The notes beneath the pieces were generated by a model that saw only the letters and a list, made by a program, of their open reading frames with translations, was not told the origin of the DNA and did not search any database. A stretch of 18,339 nt of DNA from a virus. This document shows, piece after piece, positions 1-18,242 of this stretch. Made by a program: the position numbers and the translations under genes. The stretch lies in the UHGV virus genome UHGV-0075702, one strand, 5' to 3'. The stretch's first letter is position 1. Each line of letters opens with the position of its first letter.

Positions 1-719
1 TCACATCCGTGGTTACCCTCCTGCGGCGGTTCTGGTAGCCGCATCCAGTGAGTTGCTTGCTCAATACCATTACCCGGCTTAATCGTTGCATCTCCGCGCC
101 GAAAGGTGCTTCCGGTATAGCGTGCGGAGCATATTAGCGCTTCAACCAGAGAGCTATCGAAATTCACCGAAATAAGCACGTTCTGGCCCTTTTCAGGCAT
201 TCGATCACTACAGCTTATCCAACTATCCGGAGTTCCCGGAGAGTTGCCATTTACATCGAAGTTTGGCTCTGCGTCCTGAACCAGGAGGATGTAACCATTC
301 TTGGCAGTATCAAGTTCTAACGCCTCGGTGACGGTGCCGAAATAGCGATTACCTAAATCAGCATCACAAGTGCTTACATCAATGGAAACTTCCATGCCTT
401 CGATTAATTCTGGCAAGTTGTAAGTTTGGTTTACAGGTTGGCCTCCCTGAAGCATGGCGGCGCGGTGACACCAGATAATCCAGCCAAGCGCCATATCCCA
501 TGCCATGTATTCTCTATCGCCATTTTTCGCCCTGCGGCGATCTACAGATTCCCCGAAACGCTTCTCCATAAATAATTCATAGGCTGCTCGTTCATCCGAT
601 ACTGCTGCCAGTGATGCCAGTGCAATTCGTGCCAGTTCCATTTGTTCGCCACGGGTAAGCCCGTTTTCAAGCGGATTTTTAATGAATAATTCGATACGTT
701 CTTTGGTAATAGAATTCAT
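1..719 (-). CDS. Eaa-like phage protein with DUF551-type C-terminal region; 3' end cut by window edge
   Basis: Minus-strand ORF from ATG at 719..717 (MNSITKERIELF...) stays open to position 1. Translation near the window edge contains W-M-R-L-P-E-P-P, resembling the conserved W-x-P-LPEPP motif I associate with DUF551/Eaa proteins. Absent from the ORF track because no stop lies inside the window. Confidence 0.55.
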   Translation of the reverse strand, partial: MNSITKERIELFIKNPLENGLTRGEQMELARIALASLAAVSDERAAYELFMEKRFGESVDRRRAKNGDREYMAWDMALGWIIWCHRAAMLQGGQPVNQTYNLPELIEGMEVSIDVSTCDADLGNRYFGTVTEALELDTAKNGYILLVQDAEPNFDVNGNSPGTPDSWISCSDRMPEKGQNVLISVNFDSSLVEALICSARYTGSTFRRGDATIKPGNGIEQATHWMRLPEPPQEGNHGC

Positions 720-2239: not shown

Positions 2240-2623
2240 TTAGAAGGGAATTGAATCGTCGTATTCAGGAAGATTTTGATGATTGTTACTTTGTTGCTGT
2301 TGGCTGTTTCCTGAAGTTGCAAATCCAATCTTTGCATTCAGTAATTCAAGAGTGATTGATTGACCATTTTGCCCCTGATAAACATCAACCCTGATGTTTT
2401 CTCCGGTAATTTCCACAATTCCACCTTCAACCAGAACGCTACGATAGTAATCCGCTTGCGCTCCCGGCTTGGCAAATACAACGGCGCTGTAGTTTGTCCA
2501 TTCTTTCTTTTTTGTCTGGCGATCGTAATACTGAACGCCAGCACGGATGTTGAATCCGATATTTTCCCCGGCCTGAAACTCTCTTGCGGGTTTGTTTAGT
2601 CTTACTGTAATCGAATGTGCCAT
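2240..2623 (-). CDS. ssb: single-stranded DNA-binding protein (SSB)
   Basis: Internal ATG (MAHSITVRLNK...) overlaps the erf stop (TAATG). Acidic C-terminal tail ...LPEYDDSIPF matches the SSB D-D-D-I-P-F tail. Confidence 0.8.
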   Translation of the reverse strand: MAHSITVRLNKPAREFQAGENIGFNIRAGVQYYDRQTKKKEWTNYSAVVFAKPGAQADYYRSVLVEGGIVEITGENIRVDVYQGQNGQSITLELLNAKIGFATSGNSQQQQSNNHQNLPEYDDSIPF

Positions 2624-3228
2624 TAAGCAGTTGCCCCTTCTAATTCGTCTCGTCTGATGTTGTAAACGTCCTGCGCTTTGTGCTGCTCCGGCGTCCCTTC
2701 GAGCATCTTCCACGCTTTGGCGAACGCCTGTTTAAGCTCTTCTACGGTGTTTTTCTGCATTGCTGCGTCAGTGAATGCTTTTAGAACCTGTTCAGGTGTA
2801 AGTGATGGTTTTGATTGCTTTGCTGCTGCGTTCTGCTGATGTTTATGCTCGTCTGTATCTGCATCTTTCGCATCATCAATGCCGAACAAACCATTGAGGC
2901 AATACTTGCGCGCATAAGAACTTGTAGCTCCAGTAACTTGTGCAGAATCCATTCCTTTCTTGCTTTCTTCCTCTCTTGCGAGAGCGGTTGCCGTATGGCG
3001 GTTTTCGCCATCGGTAATAGTTGCCGTGGCTTTCACATAATACCGATCACCAATCAACACAACTTCATCGCTGATTGATAAAAACAGGCCATTCAGTAAC
3101 GGCTTAACGCCTTCAAGAATGTCTTCGCAGCTTCTGTATTTATATTTACCGAATGAGTTGTACTGATTCTTTGGCGCGTTCAGATTCTCCTGAATAGCTG
3201 CCAGTCTTGCATAAAATTCTTTGCTCAT
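2623..3228 (-). CDS. erf: ERF-family single-strand annealing recombinase (P22 Erf-like)
   Basis: Translation MSKEFYARLAAIQENLNAPKNQYNSFGKYKYRSCEDILEGVKPLL... closely matches my recollection of P22 Erf. Start chosen at the internal ATG (3228), 11 nt after the stop of the upstream small ORF. Confidence 0.8.
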   Translation of the reverse strand: MSKEFYARLAAIQENLNAPKNQYNSFGKYKYRSCEDILEGVKPLLNGLFLSISDEVVLIGDRYYVKATATITDGENRHTATALAREEESKKGMDSAQVTGATSSYARKYCLNGLFGIDDAKDADTDEHKHQQNAAAKQSKPSLTPEQVLKAFTDAAMQKNTVEELKQAFAKAWKMLEGTPEQHKAQDVYNIRRDELEGATA

Positions 3229-3238
3229 ATGTTTGTTC

Positions 3239-3409
3239 TCAGAATGGACATGGCCCAAGGAAATAACGCTGATTTAATACTTCAGTCTTTGCCGCATTTA
3301 AAAATACGCGAACACCTTCACGATCTCCCTTCTGGCGATACATTAACGCCTGCTGCGTGTACATGCGTCTCTGTAACTTGCTCTCCTTCACTGTGGTTGC
3401 AAGTGACAT
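3239..3409 (-). CDS. small ORF (56 aa, MSLATTVKESKLQRR...)
   Basis: Not in ORF track (under 60 aa). AGGAGA RBS 7 nt before the ATG; stops 11 nt before erf. Overlaps the next feature in another frame, so only one may be real. Confidence 0.35.
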   Translation of the reverse strand: MSLATTVKESKLQRRMYTQQALMYRQKGDREGVRVFLNAAKTEVLNQRYFLGPCPF

Positions 3410-3488: not shown

Positions 3489-3637
3489 TTCCTGCGATAC
3501 CACGGAAGGTTGATAGCTGATTTCATCGCTTTATTTGCTTCAAGCCACATTTTGGAATCACCAATAAATCTGGCTATTACTGCTTTGTTTTGTGCTGCAC
3601 GAAGCATCTGGTGATTGATGGCTATTTCATTGCGCAT
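3485..3637 (-). CDS. kil: Kil-like host cell-division inhibitor (50 aa)
   Basis: Not in ORF track. Translation MRNEIAINHQMLRAAQNKAVIARFIGDSKMWLEANKAMKSAINLPWYRRK; the FIGD-xKM core and the position between cIII and erf fit recalled Kil proteins. Start overlaps the cIII 3' end. Confidence 0.5.
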   Translation of the reverse strand: MRNEIAINHQMLRAAQNKAVIARFIGDSKMWLEANKAMKSAINLPWYRRK

Positions 3638-3753
3638 AATAAGACCTCAACTCTTTTCCATCCGTCACGTAATTTACGGGTGATTCGTTCAAGTAAAGAT
3701 TCATTTAGTTGGAAGGCACCCATGCGAGCGCCTCCCGCGATTGCGTAAATCAT
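3622..3753 (-). CDS. cIII: CIII protein (FtsH inhibitor that stabilises CII), 43 aa
   Basis: Not in ORF track. Translation MIYAIAGGARMGAFQLNESLLERITRKLRDGWKRVEVLLCAMK contains ESLLERITRKLRDGWKR, which matches the lambda CIII central helix as I recall it. AAGGAA RBS present. Confidence 0.8.
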   Translation of the reverse strand: MIYAIAGGARMGAFQLNESLLERITRKLRDGWKRVEVLLCAMK

Positions 3754-3777
3754 GGGTGGTTCCTTATGTTGGTTTTA

Positions 3778-4745
3778 TTAGTAGGTTATTTTTGTTGCGA
3801 ATACTTCGCCTTTTACGATGGCTGTTATGATATTTTTAGCAACATCTTCTGATGCGCCAACCTTGATAAGGTCAGCAAGTATTTTGTTATTTACTTCTTT
3901 CCGGTGAGCTTTATCCTTTGCTCTACGCTCTTCTTCTTCCTTGATTCTTTTTTCTTCTGCTATTCTGGCTTGCTCTTTTGCTTCAGCCTCGCGCCGGATT
4001 CGTTCAGTCTCCTCCTGTGCTTTTCGGCGTTCTGCTTCAATTGCCGCCTGCTTTTCTCTTTCAGCTCGTTCTGCTGCCTCTTTTGCTTCGCGCTGTGCTC
4101 GTTGCTCGGCTTCAATGCGTTCACGCTCTGCACGTTCCGCTGCGGCCTTAGCTTCTGCTTCTCGCCTTGCTGCTGCTTCAATTTCGGCTTTTGCCTTTGC
4201 TTCGGCTTCTGCTCTGGCTTTCTCTTCAGCTTCTCTTTTTAAGCGTTCTTCATGCTCTCGCTTTTCCTGCTCCGCTTTGAGTCTTGCCTCTTCTCTTTGG
4301 CGGTCAAATTCGCGATCCATCAAAATCGCTATTTCATGGTCAGACTCAATTTGCTTTGCGAGAGCTTCAGCTGCTGCCTTAGCTTCTTCTTCGGCTTTAA
4401 TCCGCGCCTGTTCCTCCTCATAATCAGTAAGAGGCTGGCGAGCCTTGCTTTCAGTTCATCAAGGCGATCGCGCACTGTCTTGCGGTTGGCATCAATTAGC
4501 TTTGGAATTTCCTTCAGTTCAGCAACAAGGTCTTTGCCAAGACCATCGAGATATGTTTTCGTCTGCGCAACTTTATACGCCAGAGAAGCGATCTCCTTTC
4601 TGCCCTTTGCCGTTGTGATATCAGGCACAAAGGACATAACTTCACGTTCAACCTTTTGGAGAATTTCTTCAATCTGGTCGGCAGACTGAAATACAGTCAT
4701 TGCATTTGCTTTTTCAATAACAACTAAATCTGTTACTTCACTCAT
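3778..4745 (-). pseudogene. frameshift-interrupted gene: N-terminal domain (4329..4745) plus Ala/Glu/Arg/Lys-rich TolA-like repeat and C-terminal domain (3778..4323); pseudogene, sequencing error or frameshifting not distinguishable
   Basis: Two track ORFs abut. The downstream frame stays open upstream to about 4455 and reads as plausible protein (LTDYEEEQARIKAEEEAKAAAEALAKQIESDHE...), while the tail of the upstream frame (RLASLLLIMRRNRRGLKPKKK...) looks like out-of-frame junk. GGAGG RBS before the ATG at 4745. Confidence 0.5.
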
Positions 4746-4759
4746 ATATATCCTCCGTC

Positions 4760-4786
4760 AAAAAAATTGCCCTCACACTGGAGGGC
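4760..4786 (-). terminator. intrinsic terminator-like hairpin inside the pL operon
   Basis: On the minus strand, GCCCTC-cagtgt-GAGGGC followed by AA and a run of 7 T, ending about 15 nt upstream of the ATG at 4745. Confidence 0.55.
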
Positions 4787-4879
4787 AAAGAAGATTTCCA
4801 ATAATCAGAACAAGTCGGCTCCTGTTTAGTTACGAGCGACATTGCTCACATAGCAGACTCGCAAATCTGCTATAGGTGC

Positions 4880-5625: not shown

Positions 5626-5961
5626 TCAAATAAGTGGTTTGCTGCCTAATTTCATTTTCTGGCGACCAACACAAGTCACACCCATTTCACTGCGTGGCTT
5701 GCGGTAGTAAATACGGTTCTGTTTACTCTCGACTTCTTCTGCCTTCTTGCAGCGAAGGCTTCCGAGTGATATTGCTTTTTCAGAAAGGCTTAAACGCTTT
5801 CTCGGGGCTTCCTGAACAGGTTCCTCACTGTCTGTACTGAAGATCGAATCGATGATGTTGCAGATGGCATCACGCTCGATAGCCAGCTTTCTGCGCCGCT
5901 CATGACGGCGAGTTTTGGCATTTCCTGCAAATGTTGATTTCCCGTACACGATTACCGTCAT
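5626..5961 (-). CDS. N: N-type transcription antitermination protein
   Basis: C-terminus ...GVTCVGRQKMKLGSKPLI resembles lambda N (...GITCSGRQKIKGKSIPLI from memory), with an Arg-rich N-terminus (AKTRRHERRRK). Start taken at the internal ATG with GAGGAAAA RBS. nut-like sites lie upstream. Confidence 0.75.
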   Translation of the reverse strand: MTVIVYGKSTFAGNAKTRRHERRRKLAIERDAICNIIDSIFSTDSEEPVQEAPRKRLSLSEKAISLGSLRCKKAEEVESKQNRIYYRKPRSEMGVTCVGRQKMKLGSKPLI

Positions 5962-6080
5962 GATATTTTCCTCATGTGAAATGGCTTTGGTGGTGATGCG
6001 CCAGATGCTGATCTTCTGGTTGCTGTCGTTGCAGCTGCAATTCACATCACCGCCAAACCCATCTCGTTTGGTATCTGTTT

Positions 6081-6410: not shown

Positions 6411-6590
6411 TTACAGAGCAAAGAGATCATGCATTAGGTTGCTGTTCATCTGGTGGTTGAATTGATACGGCTCCAATTCCTTCTTGATCTCGTTCAGGTG
6501 TTGTTCCGCTTTTTTTGCCAGATCGTGACCTTCTTGGATCTGGCTTTCCAACATCTTGTTGAGAATTTCCATCTCCGGTTGCAGATTCTT
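6411..6590 (-). CDS. alternative-frame small ORF (59 aa, MPKNLQPEMEILNKMLESQIQEGHDLAKKAEQHLNEIKKELEPYQ...) overlapping the 3' end of the peptidase ORF
   Basis: Part of track ORF 6411..6686. GAGG 9 nt before the ATG; helical-looking sequence with E. coli-preferred codons (ctg, gcg, ccg, aac, atc), whereas the overlapping peptidase frame uses rarer codons. Only one of the two frames is likely coding here. Confidence 0.25.
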   Translation of the reverse strand, partial: KNLQPEMEILNKMLESQIQEGHDLAKKAEQHLNEIKKELEPYQFNHQMNSNLMHDLFAL

Positions 6591-7428
6591 CGGCATTAGC
6601 TTTTTCCTCTTTTTGTAGATACGTTGTACAATCAATAACCCTCGGCTTTCCAAATGTTGGAATGTCACCATTATGAATTTTGTCACAGAAAAGATTATAG
6701 AGTATTTCTGTTATACCTTTAGGATGCTCAACACACTTGAAAAGTTCCTTGGCTTCTTTTCTGTCGATAACAAATCCATGTGAAGGATATGAGGCTATTA
6801 GTTTGCCTAACGCCCCTTCTTTTAGGCTGCTTGGTTTGTCTGCTAATCGTTGGCCATAAGTGATAGCTATACTCATTGCGCGCTGATGTTCACCAAGCTT
6901 TATTGGATCTATCTGTGCGGCCATAGGTGCTATCAACGCTTCTGTAAGTCTGGTCGCGATATCAGCAGACATTTTGGTACTTATCTGATTTTCGTATCTT
7001 ATCTTAACAAGGTGTGAGTTAAACGCTGAAATAGAGCGTTCCTTTAGAGCATCAAGAGCTGTCATGATAGCTAAACCAGAACTCATCTCACCTATTTCAT
7101 CGTTTTTTTTCAGTTGGATATCTAATGGCCCAAGCTCCCCCATGTCACCAATAACAAGTTTATTGGCTGCTATAGCTATTAGTGTACCAGCACTTTTGCA
7201 TGGTCCAACAACTAAAAGTGTTACCGTTTCATAATGGTGCTGTAGAGCTCTACCTATACGATAACCTGCATTTGGATCACCGCCATAAGTAGCAACACAG
7301 AAGATAACATTCTCTTTTAATCCATGTTGTGACTTACGTTTCTTGATTTCATTGGTGAGATCAAGATAACCATCACGATGAATATCGCCTGTATACACAT
7401 AAACATCATGATTTTCAATAGAATTCAT
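6427..7428 (-). CDS. Clp-fold serine peptidase (SDH / SppA-S49-like) at the position lambda uses for rexAB
   Basis: The segment VIFCVATYGGDPNAGYRIGRALQ...LLVVGPCKSAGTLIAIAANKLVIGDMGELGPLDIQ follows the pattern I recall for SDH-family/S49 proteases (...SPGG...ALR...MSGGTLIALAADEIVM...LGPVDPQ). GGGAG RBS. The body from about 6600 to 7428 is visibly AT-rich. The last ~85 codons are low-complexity, so the 3' end is uncertain. Confidence 0.65.
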   Translation of the reverse strand: MNSIENHDVYVYTGDIHRDGYLDLTNEIKKRKSQHGLKENVIFCVATYGGDPNAGYRIGRALQHHYETVTLLVVGPCKSAGTLIAIAANKLVIGDMGELGPLDIQLKKNDEIGEMSSGLAIMTALDALKERSISAFNSHLVKIRYENQISTKMSADIATRLTEALIAPMAAQIDPIKLGEHQRAMSIAITYGQRLADKPSSLKEGALGKLIASYPSHGFVIDRKEAKELFKCVEHPKGITEILYNLFCDKIHNGDIPTFGKPRVIDCTTYLQKEEKANAEESATGDGNSQQDVGKPDPRRSRSGKKSGTTPERDQEGIGAVSIQPPDEQQPNA

Positions 7429-7594: not shown

Positions 7595-8302
7595 TCACGA
7601 ACTTTTCAGCCACTCCCTTGCCTCGATGTCATCCAGATGGCGAGATTGCTTCAGAATACCAGCCACATACTCCACCTTTGCTACTTGATGATAAGGCAAC
7701 GTTATTGGCCTGTGGTCCTGGTTGATGCTTGTAAATTGGTATTCTCCGTCTCTGTCATAGCCAAGAACTTTGATCATGTTGTGTCCTTCAACAGTTCTGA
7801 CAAACACCTCATCACCCGGGAATACTTTGGTGTTAGGCTCAATGAGTACATATTCTCCTGATTTTATTCTGGGCCACATGCTGTCTCCTTTCACACGAAG
7901 ACCAAAGGCATCTGGATCATCGCTATAAATCTTGAGCCACCCATCGCGCTCTTCGGTCATCTCGATGGCACCATCAACACCAAGAATTGCCTCACCAACC
8001 ACGCGCACTAACCCTTTTTTTAATTTGCCAACAAATGAAAGAGTATCTTCATCATTCGCTCCATTTAACGAAGTGCCGTGCTGAAGCCAAACAACATCAA
8101 CGTTTAGAAATTTCGCAAGCGCATTCATTTTTTCCTGACGCGGTAAAGACTCAGCATTAAACCATTTGCTAACGCCTTTGGACGAAAGAGAAAGGGCACG
8201 GGCTATGGCCATCCCCCTACCATGTTCATCAAGACCAGCTTCTTTACAGGCTTGCGCTAGCCGCTGGGCGAATTCTTTGCGCACTTTTTCATTCTGAACC
8301 AT
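7595..8302 (-). CDS. cI: CI-type prophage repressor (N-terminal HTH plus C-terminal S24/LexA-like autocleavage domain)
   Basis: 235-aa ORF with an HTH-like N-terminal region and a C-terminal region containing G-D-S-M (LRVKGDSMWPRIKSGEYVLIEP), typical of the S24 Ser-Lys dyad. Divergent from cro across a 78-bp operator region. Confidence 0.9.
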   Translation of the reverse strand: MVQNEKVRKEFAQRLAQACKEAGLDEHGRGMAIARALSLSSKGVSKWFNAESLPRQEKMNALAKFLNVDVVWLQHGTSLNGANDEDTLSFVGKLKKGLVRVVGEAILGVDGAIEMTEERDGWLKIYSDDPDAFGLRVKGDSMWPRIKSGEYVLIEPNTKVFPGDEVFVRTVEGHNMIKVLGYDRDGEYQFTSINQDHRPITLPYHQVAKVEYVAGILKQSRHLDDIEAREWLKSS

Positions 8303-16177: not shown

Positions 16178-16652
16178 CGTAATAGCGGCGATAAGTGGCG
16201 GGGCTATTGCTATAGCATCTGTGTTAATCACTGGACCAAGTGGTAACGATGGTCTGGAAGGTGTCAGCTACATACCATACAAAGATATTGTTGGTGTATG
16301 GACTGTATGTCACGGGCATACAGGAAAAGACATCATGCTCGGTAAAACGTATACCAAAGCAGAATGCAAAGCCCTCCTGAATAAAGACCTTGCCACGGTC
16401 GCCAGACAAATTAACCCGTACATCAAAGTCGATATGCCGGAAACAACGCGCGGCGCTCTTTACTCGTTCGTCTACAACGTGGGTGCTGGCAATTTCAGAA
16501 CATCGACGCTTCTTCGCAAAATAAACCAGGGCGATATCAAAGGCGCATGTGATCAGCTACGTCGCTGGACATATGCTGGCGGTAAGCAATGGAAAGGTCT
16601 CATGACTCGTCGTGAGATTGAGCGTGAAATCTGTTTGTGGGGTCAGCAATGA
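16149..16652 (+). CDS. SAR endolysin (T4-lysozyme/GH24-like, phage 21 R-type)
   Basis: N-terminal signal-anchor-release domain rich in Gly/Ala ([19 protein letters not shown]) followed by a lysozyme domain (...[27 protein letters not shown]...). Resembles phage 21 R21 as I recall. Start overlaps the holin 3' end. Confidence 0.9.
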
Positions 16653-17622: not shown

Positions 17623-17826
17623 ATGAAAATTCTCTGGGTCATCAGTCTTTTGTGTAGTGCTATTGGATTTATTGAAGGAATCCTCGGGGCTTTCGGTGCT
17701 CAGAGTGCTCCACAACAGGCTGCAGGTGCAGCAATGGGAGTAGCATGGGCAGTTATTCCATATTGTATTTGTCGTGCTATCCAACAATTGCGCCCTCGAG
17801 AAGTCATTATTAAAAAGGAAGAATGA
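17623..17826 (+). CDS. small two-TM membrane protein (67 aa)
   Basis: AAAGGAG RBS 8 nt upstream. Two hydrophobic segments (ILWVISLLCSAIGFIEGILGAF; AAMGVAWAVIPYCICRAI) and a basic C-terminus. Preceded by an AT-rich promoter-like tract and followed by a terminator hairpin. Confidence 0.55.
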   Translation: MKILWVISLLCSAIGFIEGILGAFGAQSAPQQAAGAAMGVAWAVIPYCICRAIQQLRPREVIIKKEE

Positions 17827-17857
17827 CCAGATCTTATCCGGTGTTTTTTCTGTCTAA

Positions 17858-17880
17858 GCCTCGCGTCGCGGGGCTTTTTA
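17858..17880 (+). terminator. intrinsic terminator after the small membrane-protein gene
   Basis: GCCTCGC-gtc-GCGGGGC (7-bp stem, one G-U) followed by TTTTTA, ending 12 nt before the HNH ATG. Confidence 0.5.
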
Positions 17881-17891
17881 TTGGAGCCAGC

Positions 17892-18242
17892 ATGCCACCA
17901 CGAACCCCAAAAGCCTGCCGCGTTCGCGGCTGCCGCCCAACCACGACTGACCCGTCAGGCTACTGCGAAAGCCACAAAAGCGAAGGCTGGAAACAATACA
18001 AGCCAGGCCAGTCCCGTCACCAGCGCGGCTACGGTTCGAAGTGGGATGTTATCCGCGCGCGCGTGCTGAAGCGTGACAAGGGCCTGTGCCAGTTGTGCCT
18101 GCGTGCTGGTGTGGTGCGCGAGGCGAAAACCGTTGACCACATCATTCCTAAAGCGCATGGCGGCACAGATTCAGACAGCAATCTGCAGAGCCTGTGCTGG
18201 CCGTGTCATAAGGCGAAGACGGCCCGTGAACGACTGAAGTAA
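17892..18242 (+). CDS. HNH endonuclease (terminase-associated type)
   Basis: Internal ATG with GGAG RBS 5 nt upstream. Zinc-finger and HNH features: CRVRGC...C, DHIIPKAHGG, NLQSLCWPCH. HNH genes next to cos and terminase are typical of HK97-like packaging modules. Confidence 0.8.
   Translation: MPPRTPKACRVRGCRPTTTDPSGYCESHKSEGWKQYKPGQSRHQRGYGSKWDVIRARVLKRDKGLCQLCLRAGVVREAKTVDHIIPKAHGGTDSDSNLQSLCWPCHKAKTARERLK

Follow-up and report, generated by a model that had tools for sequence, protein, structure and literature searches.

The window, an 18,339-nt stretch of the viral genome UHGV-0075702, carries two minus-strand open reading frames whose coordinates agreed with those in the initial annotation. 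The upstream ORF (4329..4745) starts with an ATG at 4745 and encodes 138 amino acids before a TAG stop at 4331..4329, and the downstream ORF (3778..4323) encodes 181 amino acids from a TTG, contains an ATG at 4320 and represents the 3′ part of the native frame. That frame, which is −1 relative to the upstream ORF, occupies 3778..4455 (minus strand) and specifies hinge residues 101 to 106, an E/A/R/K helix of about 190 residues, a small C-terminal domain and the natural stop. On its 5′ side it is closed by a TGA TGA pair at 4461..4456, so any frame change must fall 3′ of there, and both frames are open across 4455..4329. The upstream ORF comprises the native N-terminal helical domain (residues 1 to 100), followed by 38 out-of-frame basic residues encoded at 4329..4445 (minus strand; RLASLLLIMRRNRRGLKPKKKLRQQLKLSQSKLSLTMK and the stop). 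This tail contains 13 K/R and no D/E, has a pI of 12 and is not conserved as protein; the first stop of the window copy is at codon 139.

Upstream of the gene, on the same strand, a ribosome-binding site (GGAGGA, 4751..4756) lies 5 nt from the ATG at 4745, and a terminator-like hairpin followed by a T-run (4767..4788) is located just before it. The hairpin is the counterpart of Sf6 tL2A, and by this landmark the gene belongs to the early-left (pL) operon, which is under N antitermination. The gene order in the window, as in L006, is N and ral and, further along, the split gene, cIII, kil, Erf and Abc2.

The two ORFs are one gene lacking a single C

The initial annotation had proposed that a −1 frame change splits one gene; comparison with homologues supported this: the window gene measures 968 nt versus 969 nt in Sf6, CUVET21-PYO5 and NT1F10, with a lone gap at codon 100. 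Intact homologues consist of one ORF of 969 nt and 322 amino acids (Sf6 gene 33, RefSeq "TolA"/hypothetical, PHROG 1376), such single-ORF forms being found in E. coli, Enterobacter, Cronobacter, Salmonella, phi80 and D3, and none is arranged as two genes with the window's boundaries. In a DNA alignment with four homologues, minus-strand G4448 C4447 A4446 (the lesion codon, Ala100, at 4446..4448) stands where these read GCC followed by A, which places the missing C at codon 100, by 4447; past this codon the native frame is the −1 one. Consistently, among the E. coli genome matches listed, a 106-nt query around the lesion always aligned to 107 nt, and restoring one base yielded an end-to-end match to the family profile (583 bits, positions 1 to 322).

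The overlap had been described as plausible protein in the downstream frame and junk in the upstream one, a reading borne out by the family HMM, against which the −1 frame of the overlap scored 61.1 bits (E = 2.5e-20) and the 0-frame tail −2.4 bits (E = 0.51). The 138-aa ORF matched HMM positions 1 to 102 (220 bits) and PHROG 1376 positions 1 to 106 (E = 3.6e-45) and equalled Sf6 gp33 exactly through residues 1 to 99, while the −1 frame matched HMM positions 100 to 322 (340 bits) and the downstream part PHROG 1376 positions 182 to 362. In a set of 18 homologues, the most divergent at 69% identity, R103, P105 and T107 were invariant and L106 nearly so. Eight of the 12 polymorphic sites in the overlap fell at native third codon positions, as did 65 of 123 variable sites in the whole gene, the substitutions being biased to synonymous ones. 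The T at 4441 is such a synonymous variant, and it must be shared by H61, the one genome at 99.1% identity, since this genome differs from the window over the stretch only by keeping the C. Judged from these sequence patterns, the native frame is under purifying selection and the lesion is disabling relative to the intact orthologues.

The deletion removed one C from a CC pair in non-homopolymer, non-repetitive sequence, 5′ of the Ala/Glu/Lys/Arg tract and outside it. Slippage in the repeat tract was rejected as its cause on account of this position. The DNA at 3900..4300 had been called highly repetitive, which proved overstated, as it is weakly repetitive, with three low-scoring Tandem Repeats Finder arrays in 4151..4278; the accompanying expectation of length variation did hold, homologues ranging from 245 to 333 aa with the variation inside the central helix region, although every variant stays in frame and the lesion itself lies elsewhere. 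In all likelihood, dC100 is an ordinary error of replication or repair, located at a non-repetitive spot and of recent origin.

The split gene belongs to the Sf6 gene 33 family

The split gene is orthologous to Sf6 gene 33 (PHROG 1376, 322 aa) and homologous over its full length to phi80 agt. The window copy and Sf6 gene 33 (protein AAQ12223.1; RefSeq WP_000005785.1 and relatives) share about 98.8% DNA identity across 1.1 kb, and within the gene they differ by the missing base, one synonymous change and two amino acid polymorphisms. With the C put back, A247T and D270E are the sole differences between Sf6 gp33 and the window protein, and D270E is present also in two intact proteins (P0010 and P0016). 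Full-length 322-aa homologues with 76 to 80% identity occur in Enterobacter, Citrobacter, Cronobacter and Salmonella. Phages phi80, D3 and phiLM21, together with one Klebsiella and one Vibrio phage, carry a family member adjoining their recombination module. Among the features that define PHROG 1376, the conserved N-terminal helical domain of about 105 residues, the central helix with the C-terminal segment and the operon location are present in the window, and the uninterrupted ORF is absent. PHROG 17211 and PHROG 21365 together make up another frameshifted PHROG 1376 allele, each being one half of it.

The AlphaFold model (pTM 0.28) contains a long helix over residues 107 to 295 with pLDDT > 90 for most of its length, a segment in which E, A, R, K or Q make up 81% of the residues of the window protein. 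In the family this central E/A/R/K helix is variable in length, and the C-terminal segment, which ends in ITY, is conserved. The repeat had been termed TolA-like, a description that did not survive further analysis. Both E. coli TolA and the window protein have a long Ala/Glu/Lys/Arg-rich helical region, but TolA has an N-terminal transmembrane anchor and a tol-pal context, whereas the window protein has no membrane anchor (maximum Kyte-Doolittle(19) of 1.03, at residue 293) and its gene lies in a phage operon. A Pfam-A scan of the intact protein returned no family at E ≤ 1, and hence no TolA domain, and an NCBIfam scan gave neither a TolA model match nor any significant family. The resemblance to TolA is one of amino acid composition only, and "cell envelope biogenesis protein TolA," as RefSeq calls many of the homologues, is a compositional misnomer for the family.

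Searches for a function gave little. No significant family was obtained for the intact protein with PADLOC, a profile search against PDB sequences produced zero matches, and the best Foldseek hit of the AlphaFold model against the PDB (E = 1.9) was meaningless because one long helix dominates the model. Literature searches on Sf6 gene 33 and the phi80 "modifier of Gam" yielded nothing usable, and the Sf6 gp33/Agt family goes unmentioned in a survey of lambdoid Rec modules from 2025 (PMC12315714).

Predicted consequences of the frameshift

Given the strong RBS at 4751..4756, efficient translation of the N-terminal fragment is expected. Ribosomes starting at 4745 would read 100 native residues and 38 out-of-frame ones before stopping at the TAG at 4331..4329, and the truncated product would keep the N-terminal helical domain and lose the invariant hinge (R103, P105, L106, T107), the E/A/R/K helix and the C-terminal domain. 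No comparable RBS was seen on direct reading of the sequence before the ATG at 4320, located 8 nt past the TAG stop, and the remaining 225 native codons, having no RBS of their own, would probably be expressed only weakly, by re-initiation at this ATG. As polarity in the operon is suppressed by N antitermination, the frameshift should have little effect on downstream cIII, kil and erf. The dC100 copy is predicted to have lost its function, and the retained N-terminal domain may keep some activity.

The gene is recurrently disrupted in E. coli prophages

Roughly 1,200 E. coli records contain this gene. Among 81 complete E. coli-type copies, 55 were intact ORFs and 26 were disrupted by seven distinct disabling lesions, the disrupted-copy counts referring to contigs picked by a 29-nt pattern, which are not phylogenetically independent samples. 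At least five lesions are independent and primary (Q20*, dC100, +T112, dCA217 and dA299), and they are spread over codons 20 to 299, Q20* being the commonest, with secondary lesions stacked on it. The +T allele at codon 112 (CUS-3/UTI89) gives products of 116 and 214 aa (CUS-3 ORFs ECRS218_0048/0049). Its 116-aa product was found on 305 contigs, at least 12 complete E. coli genome records carry the allele (UTI89, NU14, IHE3034 and APEC O18 among them), and PGAP tags UTI89_RS13095 (+T) as "frameshifted" (pseudogene). The allele with a 2-nt deletion at codon 217 (bR_120_Kylling, ACNJZ8_RS11615) is likewise a "frameshifted" pseudogene in PGAP. Like the dC100 of the window, the +T112 and codon-217 alleles are small indels in the same gene, but they are different, independent lesions. 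A hot spot at the domain junction, suggested by the window and CUS-3 alleles lying 12 codons apart, was rejected as a candidate, as lesions also occur at codons 20, 157, 217, 265 and 299. The recurrence of at least five independent primary knock-outs indicates that the gene is dispensable.

Neighboring genes in the same loci were intact, namely, Erf in 43/43, Rad52-like in 23/23 and Kil in 79/79 copies. The cIII control returned eight "disrupted" calls; these are free of stops and each terminates at residue 35, and they look like an allelic C terminus and not damage.

The mutation could be real and yet non-neutral, loss or splitting of the gene being selected in lysogens, if the full-length protein were costly or triggered host defence, or if the N domain alone were the useful part; this would account for the recurrence of independent knock-outs. 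For such selection speak the at least five primary lesions and the 26/81 disrupted copies, against none in Erf, Rad52-like and Kil of the same loci; a rough test assuming equal per-nucleotide rates gave P of about 0.003 (seven lesions) or 0.015 (five primary lesions) for their concentration in this gene. In addition, the +T allele is widespread, and the lesions at codons 100 and 112 spare the N domain exactly. This sparing is no rule, however, since the lesions are scattered and Q20* destroys the N domain too. The secondary lesions on Q20* fit neutral decay, full length is conserved across genera with substitutions biased to synonymous sites, the copies are phylogenetically non-independent, and the exposure estimate behind the test is crude. 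We consider it unlikely, though the best of the alternatives, that selection favored the loss, and equally doubtful that recurrent inactivation of this Agt-like gene, with about 30% of the sampled E. coli prophage copies disrupted and recombinase, kil and cIII intact, is driven by selection and not neutral. If it were, the full-length protein would possibly be sensed by, or interfere with, a host system tied to RecBCD or anti-RecBCD activity, and window-like alleles with a well-expressed N-terminal domain might be separation-of-function variants and not nulls.

The dC100 allele is rare

The deletion was present in 0 of the 461 complete E. coli genomes that carry the stretch. One IMG/VR contig had the deletion pattern and 72 had the intact pattern, and the corresponding figures for metagenome contigs were 0 and 18. 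In the genome-contig collection, both patterns were absent, indicating that the prophage is lacking there and leaving the negative for the deletion without weight. The 138-aa product formed a singleton cluster, on 4 to 7 contigs, compared with 471 member sequences in the intact cluster. A single narrow prophage lineage carries the dC100 allele.

The identical allele was recovered in IMG/VR UViG_3300029107_000049, in ENA ERZ28566405 scaffold_61 (56.9 kb; SAMEA2579912) and in Logan ERR11473943, which come from different pipelines and accessions and are 100% identical to the window over the shared core; the three represent one identical phage genotype and say nothing on evolutionary persistence. 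The initial annotation had listed a sequencing or assembly indel in repetitive DNA among its explanations, in which case the organism's gene would be intact. Single-base indels are the classic artefact type, this one comes without other damage in the gene, and the allele is known from metagenome or run assemblies and was found in no isolate genome; the source samples of the three assemblies, moreover, are possibly not independent. Against an artefact, the deletion is common to the outputs of three pipelines and affects a CC dinucleotide that lies neither in a homopolymer nor in repetitive sequence, for which reasons an error is improbable, and inherited frameshift and nonsense alleles of the same gene are common in finished genomes. 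We put very little weight on an artefact and regard the dC100 allele as, in all likelihood, real, rare and recent.

Recoding is not supported

Unconventional recoding, the third explanation offered initially, would yield the full-length protein by programmed or leaky −1 frameshifting or by transcriptional slippage. In E. coli the tetramer A_AAG is shift-prone, and −1 shifts of the dnaX type are stimulated by SD-like elements lying upstream. Such a motif is present at 4395..4417 (minus strand), inside the dual-open zone, with a correctly phased 0-frame A_AAG at 4398..4395 and, at a plausible spacing of 14 nt upstream, GGAGG at 4417..4413. We judged this motif incidental because in intact homologues, which need no shift, these bases simply encode protein (EEE...IKA), so that the motif was not selected for shifting. 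As the initial annotation had noted, the overlap (4455..4329) contains no canonical X_XXY_YYZ heptamer, the lone A_AAG being the only candidate, and it has no homopolymer of 4 or more and so no substrate for transcriptional slippage. The 87 nt 3′ of A_AAG folded no better than shuffled sequence (−17.8 kcal/mol versus a shuffle mean of −20.5; z = +0.89), with 166 of 200 shuffled sequences folding at least as well. Furthermore, a shift at 4398 would swap 17 residues, including the invariant R103, P105, T107, E110, E112, Q113 and R115, the 0-frame tail is not conserved, and the allele is rare and recent. Programmed recoding is thus not supported, and we dismiss it as the least probable of the explanations, with next to no chance of being correct.

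Overall interpretation and comparison with known systems

Of the three explanations offered initially, a recently inactivated gene is the one we favor: the locus very probably holds a conserved accessory gene of the lambdoid early-left (pL) operon that was recently pseudogenised, or at any rate split, through the loss of one C. In our assessment, the window copy is an ordinary pseudogene. For annotation, the two ORFs should be recorded as one frameshifted pseudogene and not as two hypothetical proteins. A minor biological point is that the gene, though widespread and located next to the recombination modules of phages from several bacterial genera, is unusually often disrupted in E. coli prophages.

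The arrangement in the window resembles the frameshift sites of dnaX, IS element orfAB and the phage tail-assembly G/GT genes in having overlapping 0 and −1 ORFs. Unlike those programmed −1 sites, it has neither a heptamer nor an RNA structure, and neither the arrangement nor the 0-frame extension is conserved.

The closest relative, Sf6 gene 33, has the same placing as the window gene, with the order tL2A terminator, gene, cIII, kil and recombinase in both, but is a single 322-aa ORF, whereas the window copy is two ORFs (138 and 181 aa), one C short at codon 100. More distantly, phi80 Agt (AFV29176.1) shows 51% identity over 322 aa to the window family (E = 1e-64) and has the three-part architecture in common with it. 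Its GenBank record carries the label "anti-toxin for Gam; Mog (modifier of Gam)," where Gam is the RecBCD inhibitor GamL, and by analogy the window gene may have had a comparable role. The natural knock-outs described here could serve to test this sole functional hint, i.e., phi80 Agt as a modifier of GamL. Like the window gene, agt heads the recombination module in the pL operon; directly downstream of it phi80 carries GamL-RecT-Exo, a place taken in the window phage by cIII, kil, Erf and an Abc2-type anti-RecBCD gene.

Two overlapping reading frames in the gene

Six-frame and codon-by-codon translation of the minus strand placed an upstream ORF of 138 aa, starting with ATG, at 4745..4329, and a downstream ORF of 181 aa, with a TTG start and an ATG at 4320, at 4323..3778 in the −1 frame of the former, in agreement with the two offset ORFs of the initial annotation. 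The −1 frame is closed on its 5′ side by TGA TGA at 4461..4456 and runs open from 4455 until its stop at 3778; since the 0 frame extends to 4329, both frames are open over 4455..4329. There, translation gives ARLASLLLIMRRNRRGLKPKKKLRQQLKLSQSKLSLTMK in the 0 frame and KARQPLTDYEEEQARIKAEEEAKAAAEALAKQIESDHEI in the −1 frame. When the overlap was compared with a family HMM made from 18 homologues, the −1 frame scored 61.1 bits (E = 2.5e-20), while the 0-frame tail scored −2.4 bits (E = 0.51), which bears out the view that the downstream frame is protein-like in the overlap and the upstream frame junk.

Antisense ORFs of 112 to 160 aa are present opposite the gene on the plus strand (3904..4242, 3941..4423, and 4252..4689). 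Given their low-complexity, Ser/Ala/Phe/Leu/Cys-rich translations, they resemble shadow ORFs of the E/A/K/R-rich coding strand, not genes.

A single-base deletion in the Ala100 codon

The gene is 968 nt long in the window, and its alignment with four intact homologues showed a single gap, one C missing from the Ala100 codon (minus-strand G4448 C4447 A4446, 4446..4448), which converts GAA CTG AAA GCC AAG GCG CGC into GAA CTG AAA GCA AGG CTC GC. In the native frame, the T at 4441 turns GCG into GCT and is silent. Over a 106-nt query, H61, the only complete genome with 99.1% identity, differs solely by retaining the C, and it must therefore share this T. With the C restored in silico, placed as in the homologues to yield A100, the protein matched the family profile from end to end (583 bits) and differed from Sf6 gp33 only by A247T and D270E. 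Residues just past the lesion (R103, P105, L106, T107, E110, E112, Q113, and R115) are invariant or near-invariant in homologues down to 69% identity, and 8 of the 12 polymorphic sites in the overlap are at native third codon positions. We conclude that the gene is a frameshifted pseudogene of a known, uncharacterised phage accessory gene and that the deletion is recent, as the initial annotation had proposed among other readings, and lineage-restricted; the repeat tract is not its cause, and the novelty of the lesion is low.

The deletion allele in sequence collections

A sequencing or assembly indel had also been considered. Among complete E. coli genomes with the 106-nt stretch, the deletion was found in 0 and the intact form in 461, and every hit among those listed spans 107 nt against the 106-nt query. 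The corresponding counts were 1 and 72 for IMG/VR viral contigs and 0 and 18 for metagenome contigs; the genome_contigs scan, in which both patterns were absent, carries no weight. In an exact-sequence look-up, 4 to 7 JGI, ENA, and Logan contigs carried the 138-aa product, and no NCBI isolate did; the cluster of the intact protein has 471 member sequences. Three carriers were retrieved (IMG/VR UViG_3300029107_000049; ENA ERZ28566405 scaffold_61, 56.9 kb, sample SAMEA2579912; and Logan ERR11473943_74610), all 100% identical to the window over the shared core, with mismatches only at the extreme edges of aligned blocks. Since three assembly pipelines reproduced the allele and the missing C belonged to a CC dinucleotide, not a homopolymer, we take the allele as probably real, judging from assemblies of a single phage genotype; an artifact is thus improbable.

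Two sister contigs (L006 and L005) equal the window except for small mismatch clusters at its edges, 1..33 and 16316..16322, and L006 diverges completely beyond its cluster, towards AntA and integrase. Such mismatches resemble mosaic joints or strain-level variation within a single prophage.

Programmed recoding, the remaining explanation, was rejected: the overlap contains no X_XXY_YYZ heptamer, as noted initially, and no homopolymer of ≥4 nt; the RNA 3′ of its only shift-prone element, a 0-frame A_AAG at 4398 (minus strand) with GGAGG 14 nt upstream, showed no folding advantage over shuffled sequence (z = +0.89); and homologues in different genera are single ORFs. Intact homologues code through the same bases as ordinary sequence (GAG GAG GAA ... 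ATT AAA GCC), so the element is not selected for shifting, and a shift at 4398 would still replace 17 residues, invariant ones among them.

Protein architecture and predicted products

An AlphaFold2 model built from an 18-sequence alignment (mean pLDDT, 78.9; pTM, 0.28) showed residues 12-103 as helical with modest confidence, a break at Q104-P105-L106, a single continuous helix over residues 107-295 (pLDDT of >90 over most of its length), and a short C-terminal helix at residues 300-311. E, A, R, K, or Q make up 81% of residues 107-295, and natural length variants of 245 to 333 aa are all in frame and all map to this long helix. The repeat tract is thus variable, as suggested initially, but its DNA is not highly repetitive, Tandem Repeats Finder yielding weak arrays only, within 4151..4278.

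The deletion lies at the end of the N-terminal helical domain, immediately before the hinge. Given a GGAGGA ribosome-binding site upstream of the ATG at 4745, ribosomes starting there are predicted to produce the N-terminal domain with a 38-residue basic tail (pI 12). The ATG at 4320 lies 8 nt past the TAG with no ribosome-binding site before it, so the C-terminal part would be made only by re-initiation at that codon.

Recurrent disruption in E. coli prophages

An independent second frameshift was found in CUS-3 (L003:1555-2524) and UTI89 (L008:636-1605), where a T inserted at codon 112 (+T), 12 codons downstream of the window lesion, splits the gene into 116 + 214 aa. At least 12 records of complete E. 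coli genomes, UTI89, NU14, IHE3034, UM146, and APEC O18 among them, carry this allele at 100% identity; its 116-aa product occurs in 305 contigs, PGAP labels it "frameshifted," and its two halves correspond exactly to PHROGs 17211 (116 aa) and 21365 (214 aa). The copy of bR_120_Kylling, with a 2-nt deletion at codon 217, is likewise flagged.

Among 81 complete copies in the fetched loci, 55 were intact and 26 disrupted by seven distinct disabling lesions, the loci (L011-L104 and L032) having been selected by a 29-nt pattern and the copies not being phylogenetically independent. Five lesions were classed as primary, namely, Q20* (C58T; 14 copies), dC at codon 100 (4 copies; the window lineage), +T at codon 112 (6 copies; the CUS-3 type), a 2-nt deletion (CA) at codon 217 (1 copy), and dA at codon 299 (1 copy). 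A 14-nt deletion of codons 157-161 (6 copies, every one) and dA at codon 265 (1 copy) were on a Q20* background, and P0019, a homologue protein from a further contig set, loses the native frame at the A-run of the codon-265 lesion. Complete control genes in the same loci were all intact (Erf, 43/43; Rad52-like recombinase, 23/23; Kil, 79/79), a comparison complicated by mosaic boundaries. At equal per-nucleotide rates, a crude exposure-weighted estimate that treats nonindependent copies gave P ~0.003 for all seven lesions falling in the gene and P ~0.015 for the five primary ones. That loss of the gene is selected in E. coli prophages appears improbable, since the lesions are scattered and secondary hits pile up on Q20*; neutral decay of a dispensable gene fits better than a selected split. 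The frequent independent knock-outs are only a mildly interesting by-product.

Genomic setting and comparison with known systems

The window corresponds to a lambdoid prophage's early region, encoding integrase-proximal accessory genes, Abc2, Erf, kil, cIII, the gene studied, ral, N, cI, cro, cII, O, DnaB-like P, Q, endolysin, and HNH endonuclease. Several neighbours deserve mention. Homologues of cIII (3622..3753) in eight loci (L016, L023, L071, L074, L079, L095, L099, and L104) align over residues 1-35 of 43 only; no stop codon was found in this allele, which looks like a divergent C-terminus or mosaic joint, not damage. The mechanical Erf ORF (2623..3258, minus strand) has a TTG start and 211 aa; homologues are annotated with 201 aa (MSKEFYARL...) from an ATG 30 nt downstream, which makes 3228 the probable true start. 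A 333-aa ORF (6427..7428, minus strand) between cI (7595..8302) and N (5626..6045), where lambda has rexAB, matches a PHROG of unknown function (21683) and has weak SDH_protease and head-maturation-protease similarity; it could be a moron or defence gene expressed in the lysogen. The HNH gene (PHROG 144; 17823..18242, plus strand) lies at the right window end, past the lysis genes; in HK97-like cos phages its usual place is just before the terminase genes.

Matches to the DNA of 3700..4800, for the most part with 95-99% identity, came from 1198 records of complete E. coli genomes and from 115 phage records. A single 969-nt, 322-aa CDS, flanked by the tL2A terminator and cIII-kil-recombinase, fills the interval in Sf6, where it is gene 33, and in E. 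coli CUVET21-PYO5 and NT1F10; the tL2A annotated in Sf6 corresponds to a terminator-like hairpin (8 bp, 5 GC pairs, then T7) directly upstream of the gene at 4767..4788 (minus strand). PHROGs assigned the gene to phrog_1376, a family of unknown function, and scans of its protein with Pfam, NCBIfam, and PADLOC gave no significant match, nor was a solved or predicted structural relative found. RefSeq names for the intact protein are "cell envelope biogenesis protein TolA," "coiled-coil domain-containing protein," and "hypothetical protein." The TolA identity was rejected, because the protein, unlike E. coli TolA, has neither membrane anchor nor TolA domain and its gene lies in a phage operon.

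The N-terminal domain is present in 157 phage records, with hosts including Escherichia, Pseudomonas, Vibrio, Klebsiella, Erwinia, Shewanella, Acinetobacter, and Sinorhizobium. The family goes unmentioned in a 2025 survey of lambdoid Rec modules (PMC12315714). In all cases examined (five phages tabulated), a recombination module directly adjoins the gene: GamL-RecT-Exo in phi80, GamL-Bet-exonuclease in Klebsiella ST15-VIM1phi2.1, Erf-like plus exonuclease in Pseudomonas D3, Erf-like plus YqaJ exonuclease and NinB in Sinorhizobium phiLM21, and Erf plus SSB in Vibrio phiV039C. Our best guess, which is no more than a lead, is that the product serves the recombination or anti-RecBCD module as an accessory factor. 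The phi80 homologue, 51% identical across all 322 residues, is labelled "agt, anti-toxin for Gam; Mog (modifier of Gam)" in the phage's GenBank record, where gamL is labelled "toxic without Mog."
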